64,000 nt of DNA. Origin: an uncultured archaeon. Its GTDB lineage: Archaea > Asgardarchaeota > Thorarchaeia > Thorarchaeales > Thorarchaeaceae. Shown here piece after piece: positions 36,118 to 64,000 of the stretch. Position numbers and translations under genes: made by a program. Each line of letters begins with the position of its first letter. Within the stretch, counting starts at the first letter, position 1. Below the pieces are notes generated by a model, which had not been told where the DNA came from, searched no databases, and was given only the letters and a program-made list of their open reading frames with translations. The stretch lies in the NCBI GenBank assembly GCA_964610875.1, contig CAZSWP010000003.1, positions 88,504 to 152,503 of the forward strand, given 5' to 3'.

Positions 36118-37386
36118 CTATTCTGCAACACGTGCAGTTATTGTAGCGCCTTCTTCCAGTGCATCCACAATCATACTGCCTTGTCTAGTCTTTATCCTGA
36201 TTGAACTCTCTCCATTTCTGCCAATGACAGTGGTAAGCATGTAGTTATCATCAGCATAGATTTCCAGACGTTGTTTTGCATATTTTCTGCCAGCGTAAAT
36301 TGTTACTTTCTTCTTTGAATAACTGATTGACACTGGTACAGTTTCACCAGGCACTCCTTTCTTTGGAAACCTACCTCTATCCCTAGCATCTGTTTTTCGT
36401 GTACTCACAGGGACTACTACCTTTTCACCACCAAAAGTGAAGATTTCATACTCTAAGTACCCATTCTCAAAATCCCGGACTTCTACAACAGGTCTTGCGA
36501 GGTCTCTCTGAGAACTGCTCATCCCTGTTGGAAGTTTGACCTTGAGGGATAATGAAGACACTTTGGCGACCTGTCCGGCTTCAATATGTATCACAGTATC
36601 AACAGTGCTGGGTAACTGGCCCAACTCTACTCGTCCACCAAGAATGAGTCGCTGTATTGCATCAATTGATGAACCAGCGTGGACTACACCAACCATTCCA
36701 ACACCTGCTGACCGTAAGTCAGAATACGCTTCGAAGTCACTATCTTTCCGAAGTTCGTCATATATCACATAATCCGGACGAACCAGTAAGAGAATATCAG
36801 CAGCTTTCTCCATACTACCATCAAGTGGTGAGTATTGAACAATATCCTCTGATACCTGAAGGTCTCTCGGCTGTTCAAGTGTTTTGACAACATTACCTTT
36901 TCTACTATAGAACTCCGCCAGTGCTGCTGAGAAGGTACTCTTTCCAGAACCTGGTGAGCCTGTGACAAGCATTCCCTCAGCCCTGGTTTCAAGACGTTTC
37001 ATCAGTTTTGGACTGAGTTTGTAATCGTCCATTGAGAGCTTCGTTATTGGACGGATTGCTGAAATCTCGTATTTGTCAGCAAAGGGTGGCATTGCAATAG
37101 CAATCCTTAGATTTCTTAACTGAACCACTGCGGCTCCTTCTTCTTCTATTTCAATAAATGATGCCCGGTCATTATTAGCGACTTCAAGTATTGCAGCTGC
37201 CAGAATATCAAGTTCATCATGGGTGAGGAGCCTCTCTGATAACTCTACAAGGGACCAATCACCTGGTGACCCGCGTTTCGCTCTTGGTGGGTTATTTTCA
37301 ACTAAATGAACGCTCATAGTGTGGTCATCAAAGAAGGCGTTCAGTTTCATAATTTCTTCTTCATCATATATCCATTCATCATTCAT
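36118..37386 (-). CDS. PINA-like (PINc/VapC ATPase family) ATPase lacking the N-terminal PIN domain
   Basis: FFDDHTMSVHL...AKRG.PG, GSPGSGKSTF, KTLEQPRDL, LLLVRPDY.IYDELR, DLARPVVEVRDF. Confidence 0.85.
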   Translation of the reverse strand: MNDEWIYDEEEIMKLNAFFDDHTMSVHLVENNPPRAKRGSPGDWSLVELSERLLTHDELDILAAAILEVANNDRASFIEIEEEGAAVVQLRNLRIAIAMPPFADKYEISAIRPITKLSMDDYKLSPKLMKRLETRAEGMLVTGSPGSGKSTFSAALAEFYSRKGNVVKTLEQPRDLQVSEDIVQYSPLDGSMEKAADILLLVRPDYVIYDELRKDSDFEAYSDLRSAGVGMVGVVHAGSSIDAIQRLILGGRVELGQLPSTVDTVIHIEAGQVAKVSSLSLKVKLPTGMSSSQRDLARPVVEVRDFENGYLEYEIFTFGGEKVVVPVSTRKTDARDRGRFPKKGVPGETVPVSISYSKKKVTIYAGRKYAKQRLEIYADDNYMLTTVIGRNGESSIRIKTRQGSMIVDALEEGATITARVAE

Positions 37387-38002
37387 CTGTGTTTCCTCCT
37401 ATATCTCGGAGTTCTGTCTTAGCAACATTATAGTAGTTTACTTCACCATTCTGATCTACAAGAGCAAAAACAAGTTCTTTTCTTGCATTCTGAGATGCTT
37501 CAGTGACCATATCAAGATTATGAAGCGTTATAGGTACACCTTCTCTCATAACGTAAACAAGTTGGTTTGCTGTGGCTGACCCGGGTCGATCGCCTCTTCC
37601 ATATACCCGGAAGCCTAGTCCGCTTCCAAAACCTTGACGTACCGCATAACCTCTGCTGCGAAGGTCTCTAAAGACTAGGTATTTCACCCAGAGGTTTGGA
37701 TCGTCTTTGAGCAATTGGCCAACAATGTCCTTTGAAGCCAATAATTCTCCATTGGGATTGTGAACCAACACGCGTTTTCGTTCAAGTAGGTGTAATACTT
37801 CAACAGGTTCAAGCTCAAGTCTGCCGTCATCAAGACGGACACCATAGAATCCCTGCTGTGAAATACGGTCGGATTCATCTTTTGCAACGTAACCCTTACC
37901 ATCAATGAACATAGTTTCAGAAGGTTCTTCTTCAATCTCTTCTTCACTGATTTGCTTTTCAGAATAATCATTCATATGTGGGTCATCATTGTTATCAGAC
38001 AA
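37379..38002 (-). CDS. tRNA splicing endonuclease-like subunit, probably the structural subunit
   Basis: LELEPVEVLHL, YLVFRDLRSRGY, FRVY, ARKELVFALVD; catalytic Tyr and His positions appear substituted. Confidence 0.75.
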   Translation of the reverse strand: MSDNNDDPHMNDYSEKQISEEEIEEEPSETMFIDGKGYVAKDESDRISQQGFYGVRLDDGRLELEPVEVLHLLERKRVLVHNPNGELLASKDIVGQLLKDDPNLWVKYLVFRDLRSRGYAVRQGFGSGLGFRVYGRGDRPGSATANQLVYVMREGVPITLHNLDMVTEASQNARKELVFALVDQNGEVNYYNVAKTELRDIGGNTDE

Positions 38003-49714: not shown

Positions 49715-50409
49715 TACGATACATATGGAAATCGTTGCAATGCAGATAAAAATGGATCAATAATCATCGCTGGACGCCTTATTACGCTCACAAAGTCATT
49801 ACACTCTGTGAGAGGACTAGGTAAGTGGGCTCAAGCAGTAGCAAAAGGCTCACGACCAAAAACCCGAGGGAAGCGTTCTCGAAGGAAGTCCTTACTCTCC
49901 AAGAAAGAATCAATGTCAAGTTCTGGAGAGTCCGCGGCTGTTCACTCTGCTCAAACGAGACTTGTTGATTTTGGTGACGAAATCAAGATGTGTGATAATG
50001 ACCCCGCCGTGGAAAAAACTGTAGAAAATCTTTCTGACGTTGGTAGTGATGCACCAACAAAAGGTCAGGAGAAAGAAGCTCCGTCTATTGGAGGGATTGT
50101 ATCCCAATGGTATTAGACAAAGTTCCTTCAGACCGTTCATTGTACTCTAGACAATTCTGGACACCAGAGCATTGTCCTCCCAAGAACGGTACTGGGAATG
50201 GCTCTGTGAGGTCATGGTACGTGTCAGGTTGACCTCAGTATTCTTGTACCTTGTCTGAGTATATAACCCCCTCCTGAAACATGTCTAGGATTTTTGGAGC
50301 TGCTAGCAACCCAATTATTTTCGAATCGTTGGGAGTGGTAACACTTGAAGGAGAAGGGTGGAATACAGAAGTCTTACTGTTGAGGTTCACTCACATTCTA
50401 AGATAGGTC
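49715..50409 (+). pseudogene. tnpB: 5'-truncated tnpB remnant retaining RuvC-III, C-terminal tail and putative omegaRNA scaffold; interrupted by a mini-element
   Basis: Translates …GNRCNADKNGSIIIAGRLITL…GLGKW…NDPAVEKTVE, matching TnpB 60299-62062; nucleotide similarity up to GATAGGTC. Confidence 0.85.
50133..50312 (+). mobile_element. Non-autonomous mini-element copy 1 (CC-bounded)
   Basis: CC-GTTCATTGT…TATATAA…AAC-CC; homologous to copies at 51992 and 55336. Confidence 0.85.
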
Positions 50410-50498
50410 AGCAATGGACTGTAGCCATCATAAAAGTCGTGAAATATTAGCTACATTAGCAATCCTTTTATTCTGTTACAGTTGAAAAAGGCCAGCCG

Positions 50499-50634
50499 CG
50501 GAGCGTAGCTCAATCTGGCAGACTGAATCGCAATGCGATTCAGGCCATCAGCAATGGACTGTAGAGAGCTGCCAATTCGGATGGCATTCACAGCTATCCA
50601 TCGGTTGCCGGTTCAAATCCGGCCGCTCCGACCA
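50499..50634 (+). tRNA. tRNA-Tyr(GUA) with two introns (D-arm and anticodon loop)
   Basis: CGGAGCG/CGCTCCG-ACCA; D-arm hairpin insert CTGAATCGC-AAT-GCGATTCAG; ATGGA-CT-GTA-G[intron]ATCCAT. Confidence 0.9.
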
Positions 50635-50740
50635 TCTTCTTTTCCTCTTATTACCTTCACCACAGGAGTCCTTCTCAATAAGTAAGATGGTATCCGTTTG
50701 GAAACCCGTCAATATATAAACACATAAACCATAGTTAATA

Positions 50741-51961: not shown

Positions 51962-52459
51962 GTGCCTGTTTTTGAGGCACACTACTCTACACCGTTCATT
52001 GTAAGCTGGACAAATCTGGACACCGGAGTCTTGTCCTTCCAGAAACGGCACTGGAACGTCACTCCATGGGGTCAGCACAGCGATGTCAGTTGACCTATGA
52101 ACTAATTATGTCCTGAAGCATATAAGCTCCTGTCAAAAAATTCCAAGTCCATCTAGAATTTTCGTAGATACAACCACCCTCGCTGTGTCAGTAGGCTCAA
52201 GGGGAACGATACCAAGCTCCAAAGACGGATTGATAGAGCCCTAGACCAACTTCGAGCTGATGCCTATGCTGGTGTATTGGTGAAGAGCAGTCGTTGGCCG
52301 AGTGAGTATAGAGAGCTTGACAACCTGTATGTGTTCAAAATCGACAAGCGGCACAGACTGTTGTACTCAGTTGTCAAAAAGAATGGGCGACGCTTTGTCT
52401 TGATACACGACTTTCTGAAACATGATGAATATGACAGGCTCTTCGGATACCACACCTAG
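51962..52459 (+). pseudogene. RelE/ParE-like toxin gene interrupted by mini-element copy 2
   Basis: Removing 51994-52179 restores MPVFEAHYSTPRCVSRLKG…RHRLLYSV…HDEYDRLFGY in one frame from GTG at 51962. Confidence 0.7.
51992..52179 (+). mobile_element. Non-autonomous mini-element copy 2 (CC-bounded)
   Basis: CC-GTTCATTGTAAGCTGGACAAATCTGGACACC…CATATAA…CAC-CC. Confidence 0.8.
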
Positions 52460-54649: not shown

Positions 54650-54751
54650 TTCTCTTTCAAATCCGGCCGCTCCGACCATCTTCTTTTCCTCTTATTACCT
54701 TCACCACAGGAGTCCTTCTCAATAAGTAAGACAGTATCCATTTGGAAACCC

Positions 54752-55335: not shown

Positions 55336-55525
55336 GGGTTTCGTACAGCTCCCAGAATTCCAGACAGACCTAGACATCAGTGTATAGGCACTTATATACT
55401 CCTGACAAGAACAACTTGGTGAGGGTGTATTGACACACGAACGTGCTCTCACAAAGCCATTCCCAGTACCGCTCCTGGGAGGACAATGCTCTGGTGTCCA
55501 GAATTGTCCAGCTTACAATGAACGG
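55336..55525 (-). mobile_element. Non-autonomous mini-element copy 3 (inverted orientation)
   Basis: Reverse complement CC-GTTCATTGTAAGCTGGACAATTCTGGACACCAGAGC…GAGTATATAA…GAAAC-CC. Confidence 0.85.
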
Positions 55526-55910
55526 TTGGCATCCTTAGCCCTTTGAAAATTTCATCACGCTTAGTTTCACCAATCTCGTTTCCCATTTCCCTGTGTAAAG
55601 TATCCATAACGTCTATTCCATCGAAAAGCTCGAATATTGGCGTGACAAGAGCAGAATTATCAATAAATAGACCATATCTATAGATTACTATGAGTCTATC
55701 ACGAGTGTCTTCGCCCGTTTCATATAGCATTCCAATATATTGTCGGATATCATCAATAGTCGCTGAATCTAATGTATTTGAGGAATCTCTCTCAATCAAA
55801 TGTTTCTCAAGCTCTTCAACTGATTTGATGATCTCCTCTATTTTATCATCTTGAATCTCCTTTTCTTCCAGAGCCTTTCGAAAACCGTCAGTATCCATTG
55901 TTCTCACCAT
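55526..55910 (-). pseudogene. N-terminal half of a DUF6144-like protein, truncated by the mini-element
   Basis: MDTDGFRKAL…YRYGLF…ELFDG..VMD.L…KRDEIFKGLRMPT, then reads into the repeat. Confidence 0.6.
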
Positions 55911-59749: not shown

Positions 59750-60225
59750 CGGTGTATAATGATTGTAACACTCCCTTATGAAAATTTGATTATTTCCAAG
59801 GACATTTCATTTTCATGGATTTTACGGAATTACTCACTCATGTAGAAGTTATCAGTATTTAATCTTTCAAATGAACTCGGGGAAGCTGTGAATATTCATG
59901 GAGAGTTCGAAATTCAATCTTAATGATCTATTTCTGAGCCTCAACAATTTCAAGGTCCTTGTTCCCATTCCCGTTTCCACCGGACAAAGACTCAAAGAAC
60001 ACGATGTCCTTGAATCCCACTCAAGGACTAGAAGAGGCCACACAGGAGTCTCTTGAGGTCATTGTAGAAATCATCAAGGCACATCAGATTAAGAAGTTTG
60101 GCGAGGTGCGTGAGCGGATTGAGAACTTGCTAGTTTCACAGGACTCTAGTTCAATCATTATCGCATAGATCTTCTTTTCATAATAACAAAACCAACTAGA
60201 GCATTGAATCTTAACATGAATAGCC

Positions 60226-60300
60226 TGACAGTCTCGAACGACCTGTCCTTGGTCAAGGTCGCATACCATCCATTAACGTGACAGTCTTGAACGACCTATC
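60226..60300 (-). repeat. 22-bp direct repeat pair with 31-bp spacer at the tnpB 3' end
   Basis: TGACAGTCTCGAACGACCTGTC (60226-60247) and TGACAGTCTTGAACGACCTATC (60279-60300). Confidence 0.85.
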
Positions 60301-62062
60301 AATGATGTGAGTGAGCCTCAACAGTCAGAGACTTCTGTGTTCCACCTTTCTCACTCTTGCTGTCACCAGCATCACATGAGGCTGTGTCCTCATGGTCAGA
60401 GTGAGCTTTGTCCAAGTTCATCGGAGTGTGACTCCTCTCTTGGAACCTGGCTTCTGTCCGCTGCATCTGGATGTGGTTGTCGGTCCGCACATCCGCAGGC
60501 GGTGTTTCCACAGTCTTTTCCATGGCGTGGTCGTTACTACTCGGAAACTCTGCAAGCAGGGTCTGGTCACTGCAGTCAGCCACGGATACTTCCTTCTTCG
60601 AGGGTGACGCCCTCTCAGGAGATGAGGACTTCCGTTTAGAAGCACGAGACTTCCTCCGGGCATTCGGTGTGGTCTTGTCCTTGGACGTGAGCCACATACC
60701 TAGTCCTGTAGCCTCATCCATGAGTGATGGAATGAGCGTAATGATGCGTCTACCGATATTGACTGCTCCATTCATGTCTGCATTGGTCCGGTAGCCGCAG
60801 GTATGACAGATGAACAGGCTCTGTTTTGGGCGTATTCCCTTGTTCCCGCATCTGTGACAGATGATGGATGTCCAACTCTCAGGGACTGCAAAATATCGCT
60901 TTGCGGCAAGGCCTTCTCTCAGCAGCTTGTGTTTCAACAAATCATTGACCCTTGAAAAAGACCATCTGTGCATCTTACCGCGATAACGATTCCCGAATCC
61001 ATTCCCCTTTCGAGCAAGGGCTCGGATACCCTTTGGTCTTCCTATGACCACATAAAGGGAGTAGGTCTTCTCCAGTTCTAAGATATGTTCTGATAGATCC
61101 TTCACAAACTTCCTATCATAGTCAAAGCTTACTCTCCTGCGTTTCCTGCTCAATATCCTGAGTTTCTTTGAGATAGCAGATACATCTCGTCCTGCTTCAC
61201 TCAGTCTGTCTTTCTTCTGTTGAAGGCTTGCAACCTGTTGGTCATACTTTGTCATGATAGCGAGCTTGTCCTTCTGCTTCCAGTACCTGATATGTTTGTG
61301 CCCCTGTTGTGTGAGGAGCACACTACATGCAGCCTTGTTTATTCCAAGGTCAATACCAAGGATTGCTGGCGGTCTCTCAGAGTCAGGTTCAGTCTCTGTT
61401 TCTCTGATTGTGACAGAGAAGACCACCCACCATTTTCTGAAATTGTCCTTGAATATCCTCAGGCTCTTCACATCACCCTCACCAAGCTTGTTCAAGTGAT
61501 AGGAAGAGATAGCCAGAGGGATTGCTAGAGTGTCATGCAATCGAGTATCCTTCTCTACAGAGTCAATGGAGTCACGAAGCAATACCCAGTGTTTGACCGT
61601 CTGTTCTGGCCGATACACAAGCTTGAAGCATTTACGAAAGACATTGCGGGATAGTTTCCTGAGGGAGTATGCCTTACCCTGTAGGGGTTTTGCTCCACCT
61701 TTCTCAAGGTAGCTCAGCCACATACCAATGGCTGTGTCCCTACACTCCTGAAACTCGTTCACTGACATGTTAGAAAATCTGGTCTTGAAGTCATGAGGTA
61801 CTGTCAGCCTGTTGGCTGCGCCCCTTGACGCTGTCAGAGTGAGTTCATCAAGCATGCCAGCATTGATTCTCTTCGACTTCTTACCCTTTACAAGCTCGCT
61901 CTCATACTGTTCAATTATTGCAAGATAGGCCTTTATGACACGGGTGTCTCTACCAGTGATACGATTGAGTCTGGTCTTCTGGCGGCTTGTCATCATGTCC
62001 CACCATACTGGGACTTTGACACTTGAAATAACGCCTTTGGCCCGACCCATTCGACTCACCAA
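60299..62062 (-). CDS. tnpB: TnpB RNA-guided nuclease with rearranged (Fanzor/TnpB2-type) RuvC-II and long disordered C-terminal tail; no tnpA adjacent
   Basis: RuvC-I LGIDLG; VVIG in place of the canonical Glu; VPESWTS; zinc finger CHRC…CHTC; RuvC-III NADMNGAVNI. Confidence 0.9.
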   Translation of the reverse strand: MVSRMGRAKGVISSVKVPVWWDMMTSRQKTRLNRITGRDTRVIKAYLAIIEQYESELVKGKKSKRINAGMLDELTLTASRGAANRLTVPHDFKTRFSNMSVNEFQECRDTAIGMWLSYLEKGGAKPLQGKAYSLRKLSRNVFRKCFKLVYRPEQTVKHWVLLRDSIDSVEKDTRLHDTLAIPLAISSYHLNKLGEGDVKSLRIFKDNFRKWWVVFSVTIRETETEPDSERPPAILGIDLGINKAACSVLLTQQGHKHIRYWKQKDKLAIMTKYDQQVASLQQKKDRLSEAGRDVSAISKKLRILSRKRRRVSFDYDRKFVKDLSEHILELEKTYSLYVVIGRPKGIRALARKGNGFGNRYRGKMHRWSFSRVNDLLKHKLLREGLAAKRYFAVPESWTSIICHRCGNKGIRPKQSLFICHTCGYRTNADMNGAVNIGRRIITLIPSLMDEATGLGMWLTSKDKTTPNARRKSRASKRKSSSPERASPSKKEVSVADCSDQTLLAEFPSSNDHAMEKTVETPPADVRTDNHIQMQRTEARFQERSHTPMNLDKAHSDHEDTASCDAGDSKSEKGGTQKSLTVEAHSHH

Positions 62063-62090
62063 TATAAACTTACGACCTGTTCTGTGCCGT

Positions 62091-62134
62091 TGAGTTCACT
62101 CCCCTTCTTGTCTGCAAGAAAGGTTTTGAACTCA
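62091..62134. other. Stem-loop upstream of tnpB (possible element left-end hairpin)
   Basis: TGAGTTCA…TTCTTG-TCTG-CAAGAA…TGAACTCA. Confidence 0.5.
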
Positions 62135-62277
62135 TATTTTATTCATATATTTCCAATATAAACTTATTAAGATAAATTATCAAATGAAATTTTGAATTGA
62201 CTTAAACTGCTTCTAGCCTAGAAATTTTCCAATAAATTAATTTAGATGAATGTTTTAAATACCCAGCAAAACAGGAG

Positions 62278-64000
62278 ATGATTACTGTGTGGGAGAAAGG
62301 AAAACCTGAGAAAGGCTATCCAAAACACCCAAACAGAATACTCTACAATGCAATCAAGACAGGACTATCTACAACGATATTGCTTCAGAGAGAGATTGTA
62401 TCGAAGGCAGGTAATCATCTCTATGAAGGATCAAAAGAGAACTGGGAAAGAGCAAAGATTCAGTACAGATACTCAGTGGAAAGAGGGGACCCAGACTTCA
62501 CAATACTGACGAAATCTGAGAATAACATCCGGAAAAATCTGTACAGAATTCTAGTTGAACGTGCTGCGGCGTTTGGTATCCTTGAATCCGTCCGTGTGAC
62601 AAACAGATACGAGAGTCTAGGTCCACTGAATCAACGTCTTAATATTATTGGAGCTGTGCTTCGTTTCCTTGGGATGAGCCAATATGGTTTCATAGAAATG
62701 CAACAGCTAGTCCACAATGGCGAATTGGTCAAGGGTTTTGCTGCAAATTCGTATGCACCTCAAGTCATTCCAATTCATAATCTTCCAGAACTGGACTTCA
62801 TTGATTCCTGTAGGTCACCGCTTCAGACACTTGCAATGCATTGTGCCATATTTGATGTGCCGCATACTGATACCAAGAGATATGCCAATCTCTTCATGCT
62901 CAAAATGTCACCATATCTAGATTATCTGTATACAGAATATGCAATAGGAGAACCTGGACTGAATAGGAGACTGATCTCTATTCTGAGAGAACTGAAGAAT
63001 GATATTGCTGATAACTTTAGCACACGACTCTATCAAAATGATACAGTCACTGGCAAACAATCGGTTCCAACCCCAAAATTTGAGAGGCATTTCTTTGAAG
63101 CCCAACTACTAGAAGCTCAGAATGCCGGTGTGCATCCTCTGGCACTCATGGAGTTCAGACGAATATTCACGGGTGGATCGATTGTCACTAAGACTTATGA
63201 AATAGAAGACGGGAAGATCGAAGAACATCCAGCTCCATGCCTGACAGATGCAGATGTCAAGCATCTATGGTCGTTAATGTCCCAGAGTAGCATACGTAAG
63301 GGTTCGCATATTCATCATCGACTCTCTCGCCATCTTCCAACCTACCGCAGCATCAGATATGCTATGACTGACGACTCTGCAGCACAGATTGAGAGTTCTT
63401 TCAAACTCTGTGCTGAAACACCGCTCATGACTGAGCAAGGTGAAGGAAGAGCAGACCTGATTCTCTTCGAACGCTCGGTCATTCCAACCGGTCACAGATG
63501 TCTCTGGAAACCCGTTCTCTTGTTGGAGATAAAGACAAAAAGCGGATTCTATTGGGACTTCGGAGTCGAGGAAAAGGAATCAGAGTCCAGATCTTATAGA
63601 GAACTGGACCAGCTTGTTGTTCCAGCCTTTCGAATCAGGTCACGAGGACTGACTGATGATGAGTGGGATGATCTCATTCATGCTGAACCCCATGACCAAG
63701 TATTGGACCAGCTAGATGCGTACAAGAAGGCAATAGTTGATTCATACCAGGAGGTTTCAGGTCTTGCAGAAGAGATACCGCTTCAAGTTGGAACATTGTT
63801 CATTGATACTGTGGAGGACATCGGACAAGTTAGAGAGATCCTCAGCAATGTGATTCATGATGTATATGAGAAGTTGCGTGATACAGACTTTGATGATTCC
63901 CAGGTATTTGAAGTAGAACTTGAACACGCAAAACCACGTCTTGCGATTTTGATTCATAATCCATCAGATAAGGACGGAACCAAGCATACTTCTATAGAAA
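62278..64000 (+). CDS. Large hypothetical protein with PD-(D/E)XK nuclease motif, partial; runs off the window end
   Basis: Open frame from ATG at 62278 (RBS AGGAG) to the window end, absent from the ORF track; E…GEGRADLILFE…LLEIKTK. Confidence 0.75.
   Translation, partial: MITVWEKGKPEKGYPKHPNRILYNAIKTGLSTTILLQREIVSKAGNHLYEGSKENWERAKIQYRYSVERGDPDFTILTKSENNIRKNLYRILVERAAAFGILESVRVTNRYESLGPLNQRLNIIGAVLRFLGMSQYGFIEMQQLVHNGELVKGFAANSYAPQVIPIHNLPELDFIDSCRSPLQTLAMHCAIFDVPHTDTKRYANLFMLKMSPYLDYLYTEYAIGEPGLNRRLISILRELKNDIADNFSTRLYQNDTVTGKQSVPTPKFERHFFEAQLLEAQNAGVHPLALMEFRRIFTGGSIVTKTYEIEDGKIEEHPAPCLTDADVKHLWSLMSQSSIRKGSHIHHRLSRHLPTYRSIRYAMTDDSAAQIESSFKLCAETPLMTEQGEGRADLILFERSVIPTGHRCLWKPVLLLEIKTKSGFYWDFGVEEKESESRSYRELDQLVVPAFRIRSRGLTDDEWDDLIHAEPHDQVLDQLDAYKKAIVDSYQEVSGLAEEIPLQVGTLFIDTVEDIGQVREILSNVIHDVYEKLRDTDFDDSQVFEVELEHAKPRLAILIHNPSDKDGTKHTSIE

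Follow-up and report, generated by a model that had tools for sequence, protein, structure and literature searches.

We analysed a stretch of 64,000 nucleotides from an uncultured Thorarchaeia archaeon (GenBank assembly GCA_964610875.1, contig CAZSWP010000003.1, positions 88,504 to 152,503 of the forward strand), which is referred to below as the window (G000:C3:88504-152503, where G000 denotes this genome). The assembly comprises 3.75 Mb in 124 contigs and is 95% complete. Within the window, the decayed remnant of a transposon-encoded nuclease gene, tnpB, lies just upstream of a tRNA-Tyr gene. The guide of a TnpB nuclease is whichever DNA adjoins the right end of its element, and in this remnant the position of the guide is occupied by a short, exact copy of a part of the neighbouring tRNA. 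The following features are found at the locus:

49720-50125, plus strand: tnpB remnant, final third of the coding region, encoding a low-complexity C-terminal tail, with 71-78% DNA identity to full copies
50126-50334 (core 50132-50313), no strand assigned: repeat resembling a miniature inverted-repeat transposable element (MITE), lying within the omega-RNA scaffold and recurring genome-wide
50325-50411, plus strand: final ~85 nt of the TnpB 3' scaffold, ending in ...GATAGGTC plus AG, which align with 25 other right ends
50410-50424, plus strand: 15-nt copy of tRNA-Tyr (positions ~23-37) in the guide slot, an exact match to 50550-50564
50425-50430, plus strand: CCATCA, by sequence comparison the final 6 nt of tRNA-Tyr intron 1, in permuted order
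50499-50634, plus strand: single-copy tRNA-Tyr(GTA) gene (Rfam tRNA, 43.3 bits over 50499-50631)
50499-50522, 50523-50549 and 50550-50564, plus strand: exon 1, intron 1 and exon 2 of tRNA-Tyr
50565-50595 and 50596-50634, plus strand: intron 2 and exon 3 of tRNA-Tyr

A first-pass annotation of the window, made from the sequence alone, had proposed that the DNA following the remnant is identical to the exon between the two introns of a tRNA-Tyr gene, and our results agreed with it on both the gene and the identity. The 15-mer at 50410-50424 equals exon 2 (50550-50564); the identity extends to 17 nt when the preceding TC is included and shrinks to 13 nt should AG belong to the element's right end. 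The ends of the exons were fixed to within 1 nt by intron-less or one-intron orthologues in related genomes. Each piece of the gene is unique in the genome, and it is the sole tRNA-Tyr gene of the assembly, which ARAGORN either missed or miscalled as Gly. With up to 2 mismatches allowed, the window contained no further copy of the 15-mer (0.14 expected), nor was there one elsewhere in the 3.75-Mb genome, and a chance match was ruled out on the grounds of this uniqueness. The seven bases GCCATCA that the annotation had likewise noted are also there: the final G of the copy together with CCATCA gives the same 7 bases that close intron 1. The match of CCATCA is possibly due to chance (about 1%, assessed post hoc). 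The DNA between the two 15-mers, 125 bp in length, consists of the promoter and the 5' part of tRNA-Tyr. An assembly artefact was also ruled out, because one unitig runs over both copies and repeats of 15-17 nt are below the assembly word length. This unitig of 340 nt covers 50286-50625 with zero differences and comes from what is probably the source sample, so that it is not an independent confirmation; in a second DNA sample, no contig extended across 50393-50580, and no RNA run was listed that contains the stretch.

Comparison of the remnant with the 3' coding part of the full copies on contigs C37, C25 and C16 revealed that about 135 final codons are left. The RuvC and zinc-ribbon (TNB) domains of a TnpB protein are missing from what is only the C-terminal tail, and no Pfam domain was found in the residual open reading frame (ORF) at 49808-50116. 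The remnant and the intact tnpB of the window had been described as sharing ~60 nt of 3' sequence; the shared end stood up (61 nt at 83.6% identity, both ending in GATAGGTC), but in the intact copy these 60 nt proved to be the end of the coding sequence, with the stop codon inside ...TGATAGGTC. The MITE-like repeat, whose core of ~180 bp has ~50 copies in the genome at 72-98% identity, stands in for about 36 nt of a scaffold of the C37 type and breaks the scaffold of the remnant 75-85 nt ahead of the guide. The production of a normal omega RNA from the remnant would require read-through of this insertion. Other sites of MITE-like repeats in the window are 51991-52054 and 55448-55526.

The genome contains seven TnpB copies of one family and one that is unrelated. 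The boundary of the scaffold was defined from 38 right ends in this genome and 12 related genomes, of which 26 sequences, including the remnant, make up the alignment that we call A2. Conservation stops at GGTC or GGTT plus 2 nt, downstream of which the copies are unrelated to one another, and nearly all of the scaffolds in A2 possess the motif GTTCACTCA. The two bases after GGTC co-vary with an internal second terminus in the left end of the same element, which suggests that the true end of the element is probably GGTC+2 and that the guide proper of the remnant starts at 50412. The tRNA-Tyr copy (50410/50412-50424) therefore lies in guide position, as the first-pass annotation had assumed, directly 3' of the scaffold where a guide of ~16-20 nt is expected, and position is the only respect in which the remnant has such a guide. 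The left flanks of 10 elements carry TTAAT, TTCAT, GTCAT or ATAAT, from which a transposon-adjacent motif (TAM) was inferred. This motif is absent beside the tRNA-Tyr match, which is preceded by GGCCATC(AG); the closest pentamer, GCCAT, is shifted by one base and also contains one mismatch. The other tRNA matches shared no 5' motif either. Because the match lies in a single-copy, essential tRNA gene whose cleavage would be lethal, the absence of a TAM is what survival predicts. No target-site duplication was found around whole elements, every flank of which is unique, and recurrence of a flank downstream of a right end was observed only at the two loci of the window. The search for a Y1 transposase TnpA (PF01797) gave no match in the 95%-complete genome.

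The second of these loci is an intact element that lies some 10 kb away from tRNA-Tyr, in convergent orientation, and at which a piece of a different tRNA occupies the guide slot:

60299-62062, minus strand: intact TnpB of 587 aa, belonging to the Thorarchaeota family of the remnant, with the domains of the protein (PF07282, 1.8e-12)
60275-60291, minus strand: exact 17-nt copy of the tRNA-Asp(GTC) anticodon arm and first intron bases, directly after the right end
60223-60246, minus strand: older, diverged unit made up of a 10-nt right-end remnant and a tRNA-Asp-like arm (26 nt at 73% to tRNA-Asp, p about 0.005)
62059-62170, minus strand: left end of the intact element, with TTAAT, a 13-nt box (62153-62165), a hairpin, a right-end-like terminus and the same box again (62059-62071)

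The intact TnpB has 286 homologues, which are from Thorarchaeota wherever they are named, and its element ends in GATAGGTCGT. The sole other match of the 17-nt piece in the genome is the tRNA-Asp gene itself (G000:C47:23282-23298), where it corresponds to the 5' strand of the anticodon stem, the loop and the first intron bases, including a genome-specific CGTT after the loop. If the intact TnpB is active, the genome's only tRNA-Asp gene would thus be a self-target. At the tRNA-Asp site (G000:C47:23250-23368), the match is preceded by TAGCAT, one mismatch from the TTCAT/GTCAT motifs. The older unit sits about 55 nt beyond the 17-nt copy and resembles the flank of L101, a 78%-identical TnpB orthologue in another Thorarchaeota assembly; this flank has kept the first 12 nt of the tRNA-Asp arm, and its sense arm is followed by a foldback of antisense tRNA-Asp from position 37 to 3 (p<0.0005). 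An 88% paralogue of the gene that adjoins today's tRNA-Asp is found beside the intact element. The distance from tRNA-Asp to tRNA-Tyr is about 4 kb in G007, where the two are convergent, and about 13.5 kb in G020, where tRNA-Asp is on the divergent strand.

The left end of the intact element (62059-62170, minus strand) follows a layout that we also observed at L093, L100, L101, L070, L072 and L077 and on contigs C78, C37, C16 and C3 of this genome. A TTAAT-like motif is followed by a box of 11-15 nt with a TATA-like sequence, ~25 nt of further sequence, a long hairpin and a second right-end-like terminus of the same subtype and with the same last 2 nt, after which the box recurs just ahead of the tnpB gene. 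This layout was present in 10 of 11 elements. Each element has its own box, yet the two copies of it are identical inside one element in 10 of 11 cases, and judging from the sequences this arrangement looks like a TAM plus target paired with a guide-like copy. Next to the intact tnpB and divergent from it, a giant gene begins at 62278 on the plus strand and runs to 63999, its 3' end being open at the end of the contig; its counterpart at L101 (1-2764, minus strand) encodes at least 1611 aa. The giant gene is conserved in three loci and 62% identical between genomes. Two loci of G000 show 92% DNA identity over 1.3 kb of it, and their tnpB genes are only about 70% alike. Its N terminus bears a PD-(D/E)xK-like motif without a Pfam hit, and the gene may be part of an aloposon-like element.

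Pieces of tRNA genes recur in the guide slots of this family, in several genera and from four different tRNAs in G000 alone. At four elements of G000 the same region of the tRNA (about 22-38) was found, in sense for Tyr and Asp and in antisense for Leu and Arg. The C37 copy carries the antisense anticodon arm of tRNA-Arg (15/17). Antisense tRNA-Leu(TAG), from positions about 36 to 19, follows both the C16 copy and the syntenic orthologue of that copy in G007 (C82), and the tRNA-Leu gene is found directly upstream of the element; 17 of 18 positions match in G007, and the C16 guide has 3 mismatches in 14 to its own tRNA-Leu, though it equals the guide of G007. The two loci (G000:C16:30427-39947 and L087 in G007:C82) are orthologous, with the neighbouring gene block inverted, and their alignment ends about 16-22 nt past the right end, which by this sequence comparison puts a rearrangement breakpoint at the distal edge of the guide slot, the position at which TnpB-type nucleases cut. 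In G020, a remnant much like the one studied here lies 80 nt upstream of tRNA-Tyr and has the antisense 5' end of tRNA-Tyr in its slot (12/14); the genes upstream of the G000 and G020 remnants are unrelated. In G014, the slot is antisense in 12 of 13 positions to a tRNA 156 nt downstream, and in G005 it is antisense to the 5' end of tRNA-Asp (14/14). Flanks resembling T-arms or tRNA 3' ends occur in G002, G003, G001, G016 and G018, among which no parent tRNA was found within 3 mismatches for G001 and G016. Complementarity between guide and target is thus not conserved across species in the way of TldR, given 3/14 mismatches at C16 against 1/18 in G007 and the targetless flanks of G001 and G016. 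Seventeen nucleotides identical to tRNA-Asp, from the D-loop to the anticodon stem, are present around positions 891-907 of L112 (G017:C27), in intergenic DNA with no TnpB scaffold beside them, which indicates that short tRNA scraps also occur away from these elements.

The sequences at the tRNA-Tyr gene suggest that it is an insertion hotspot, marked by att-like (attachment-site-like) repeats:

50612-50707, plus strand: att-like direct repeat of 96 nt, from the tRNA-Tyr T-loop to the 3' end plus 73 nt; second copy at 54656-54751

The two copies are 97% identical and 4044 bp apart. In G020 there are two additional copies of the tRNA-Tyr 3' end. The loci of tRNA-Tyr were examined over 3 kb each in about 12 relatives, and a TnpB right end was present in 3 of them, which is far above the prediction from copy number. 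Between the two copies of the 96-nt repeat lies a cassette of 4 kb that carries a flavodiiron gene together with two unknown ORFs, and none of the ORFs scanned between 46.9 and 57.2 kb showed an integrase domain. The introns of tRNA-Tyr differ by genus, there being none, one at 37/38 only, or one in the D-stem in addition to that at 37/38, with an intron in the D-loop in G022 and an additional one in the T-loop in G002. The D-stem intron is common to four genera, and its pairing to the D-loop shows compensatory changes. Introns are present in five of the window's six tRNA genes, and a tRNA-splicing endonuclease gene with both Pfam domains is located at 37379-38002 on the minus strand, 12 kb from tRNA-Tyr.

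Taken together, the best reading of these data is that elements of this family sit at tRNA genes or at scrambled pseudo-copies of tRNAs, and that their flank-derived "guides" are scraps of tRNA. Since a guide is nothing but flanking DNA, insertion into tRNA DNA is enough to give an element a guide derived from that tRNA, which makes the intact tRNA gene appear to be its target. For the locus at tRNA-Tyr, we hold that the 15-17 nt probably represent a relic of the DNA that once received a Thorarchaeota TnpB element, or a larger island with tnpB at its end, and hence a dead, flank-derived guide. The integration site would have been a copy or an att-type fragment of tRNA-Tyr with its break where the D stem meets the anticodon stem; in line with the standard retention logic of TnpB, the omega RNA of the once living element would have recognised this site when it was empty. 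The interrupted copy may later have been scrambled and cut down to roughly the length of a guide, and the element itself has decayed through a 5' deletion and the insertion of the MITE; the functional tRNA-Tyr gene 140 bp downstream persists. Today the locus is most probably inert. We prefer this explanation because the right ends share a sharply defined boundary, because pieces of the same tRNA region recur in this genome and tRNA pieces recur in other genera, because longer scrambled pseudo-pieces of tRNA extend beyond the slot (L101), because the placement of the element relative to tRNA-Tyr resembles that of tRNA-Asp in G007 and the 88% paralogue has been retained, because tRNA-Tyr is a hotspot with att-like repeats, because the flanks in G001, G016, G020 and C16 have decayed without tracking the tRNA, and because the scaffold is split by the MITE. 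Several observations weigh against it. The complementary part of the tRNA was found at the left flank of no full-length element examined, so that a simple insertion into a tRNA gene has never been seen whole, and a search upstream of the remnant that allowed up to 4 mismatches gave no copy of exon 1 of tRNA-Tyr; the missing left part would fit a tnpB that is the terminal gene of a larger unit. The homology to tRNAs often ends after 13-21 nt, about the length of a guide; both matches in G000 (Tyr and Asp) are perfect, though the adjoining homologous DNA is only 73-88% identical; and the guide slots of G000-C16 and G007-C82 are 15/16 identical, compared with 79% for their scaffolds. The short homology, the perfect matches and the conserved slot could instead reflect selection on the guide or a copying mechanism.

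Selection on the guide would mean that the slot is kept matched to a tRNA because TnpB uses it, for example to cut or occupy the empty att site of a tRNA-integrating island and so ensure its retention or homing, or to act on incoming elements bearing tRNA att copies. Asgard TnpB would then be an RNA-guided module for retention or site recognition in tRNA-integrating elements, its slot holding a 13-20-nt copy of the attachment tRNA, preferably the end of the D-stem and the anticodon arm; we put this forward only tentatively. By the same token, the Tyr remnant and the intact, Asp-aimed copy might be two states of one system, which is equally speculative, the remnant being a dead or residual example or an orphan guide in trans. 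Consistent with selection are the perfect 17/17 matches in G000, one of which includes genome-specific intron bases, the conservation of the slot above that of the scaffold in the C16/C82 orthologues, the first 12 nt of the tRNA-Asp arm retained at L101 despite 78% TnpB identity, and the precedent of the short tRNA-matching homing guide of Type V-K CRISPR-associated transposons (CASTs). Moreover, tnpB stands at the edge of a conserved unit with the giant gene, and such Asgard elements have been reported at tRNA sites (PMC8813620). On the other hand, the bases 5' of the tRNA matches form no common TAM-like motif and in no case equal the TTAAT-like motif of the left flank, the guides of G000-C16, G020, G001 and G016 mismatch their own tRNAs, and the distance and side of the tRNA relative to the element are inconsistent (80, 140, 156 and about 2100 bp), which also ruled out a fixed distance of the CAST type. 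Cleaving a single-copy tRNA gene would furthermore be suicidal, and the scaffold of the remnant is broken. Selection for a tRNA-matching guide is therefore unlikely in our judgement, and the proposal of the first-pass annotation, that an orphan guide of the broken copy directs TnpB in trans to tRNA-Tyr, is far less probable still in view of the MITE-split scaffold, the missing TAM and the decayed, non-tracking flanks of relatives.

A copying mechanism in which a break at the right-end junction was repaired from a nearby, highly transcribed tRNA in either orientation, with neutral decay thereafter, appears doubtful as well. It would account for copies that are direct or inverted, 13-21 nt long and usually taken from a tRNA 0.1-2.3 kb away, for the second piece of 6-7 nt behind the Tyr copy, which stems in permuted order from the 21-nt stretch of the tRNA gene that also supplied the copy and meets it at a TCAG microhomology, and for the exact Asp copy at the intact tnpB upstream of an older, diverged one. 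It offers no reason why tRNAs should be copied rather than any neighbouring sequence or why four elements in G000 should have the same region (about 22-38), the tRNA-Asp gene and its copy lie on different contigs, and we know of no documented templated insertion of this kind in archaea. We regard as very improbable that the element once resided, in the manner of an IStron, in the intron-1 site of tRNA-Tyr and was removed by the tRNA splicing endonuclease, with intron 1 related to it. The right-end junction does fall within 2 nt of the 3' boundary of intron 1, and the 3' end of intron 1 in G020 is similar to the right-end terminus. This similarity is nevertheless explained by base pairing between the intron and the D-loop, in which four genera show compensatory changes; the tRNA-Asp junction is no intron site, the intron sequences have no repeats elsewhere in the genome, and no element was found that has tRNA halves on both sides. 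For the same reasons, namely the lack of genomic repeats and the D-loop pairing behind the likeness to the terminus, tRNA introns were rejected as a repeat family or as transposon remnants. The least credible of the alternatives is the other one raised by the first-pass annotation, a minus-strand box C/D small RNA (sRNA) that would guide 2'-O-methylation of pre-tRNA-Tyr. On the minus strand, six of the seven box C positions are indeed matched, and 13 nt of antisense sequence and CTGA follow, but this strand lacks a C' box, a terminal D box (second CTGA) and a terminal stem within 70 nt downstream, and the spacer is 13 nt rather than 12. No Rfam C/D family matched 50400-50435 at E<=10, the arrangement is not kept in relatives, and CTGA is the complement of a conserved transposon terminus that is found at a dozen other copies.

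Compared with known systems, the family resembles TnpB/omega RNA of IS200/IS605 elements, for which ISDra2 is the paradigm, in that the TnpB ORF has a Cas12f1-like TNB domain and a conserved noncoding scaffold spans the 3' end of the gene, with conservation ending at the right end and the flank serving as guide. It differs in lacking a Y1 TnpA in the genome, in its large (~580 aa), Thorarchaeota-specific proteins, in a left end where another terminus of the right-end type precedes a repeat of the first 11-15 nt of the element, and in its recurrent tRNA flanks. Type V-K CASTs home by a short guide that matches a tRNA. Here, too, the short guide of a TnpB-derived or TnpB protein matches a tRNA beside the element, but no Tn7-like transposition genes, fixed distance or orientation, or TAM at the match were found. 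Altae-Tran et al. 2023 (PMC10691335) described a GTTCACTCA motif downstream of Asgard tnpB genes linked to aCas1, with a candidate guide upstream of the motif. The TnpB groups Cas1H-Asgard-1/-2 of that study share this motif with the scaffolds here, as well as an Asgard host; in contrast to these groups, no Cas1 gene adjoins any tnpB copy in G000, in which the two Cas1 hits are on contigs without tnpB, and the study makes no reference to tRNA-derived sequence. The giant-gene elements of Asgard archaea known as aloposons are reported to insert at tRNA sites (PMC8813620), and such tRNA islands resemble our loci in the short direct repeats of tRNA at the hotspot and in the giant gene conserved beside tnpB. 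However, the repeat in the guide slot is the anticodon arm and not the 3' end, inverted copies occur as well, and no integrase was seen at the locus. Haloarchaeal IS1341-type elements include palindrome-associated transposable elements (PATEs) and MITEs, core deletions and tnpB without tnpA (PMC3119063); they too are tnpB elements decaying into terminal remnants, but the haloarchaeal remnants have not been reported against tRNA fragments. A paper on circular omega RNA (PMC12558985) has no bearing on the mechanism, and we found no description of tRNA-derived guide slots in TnpB in the literature.

By itself, the remnant at tRNA-Tyr is transposon debris, and the point of interest is the recurrence: in one archaeal TnpB family, the slot that programs the nuclease is repeatedly filled with pieces of tRNA, including at an intact element whose guide slot is a perfect match to the sole tRNA-Asp gene of the cell. 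tRNA genes are landing sites of many islands and casposons. If the process is passive, the finding would mark tRNA genes as landing sites of this family too, and would provide a natural set of tolerated self-matching guides. If the guides are selected, it would be a counterpart, at the level of TnpB, of the tRNA-homing guides of Cas12k transposons, would offer ready guide-target pairs for the biochemistry of an uncharacterised Asgard TnpB, and would bear on how RNA-guided choice of sites was first recruited.

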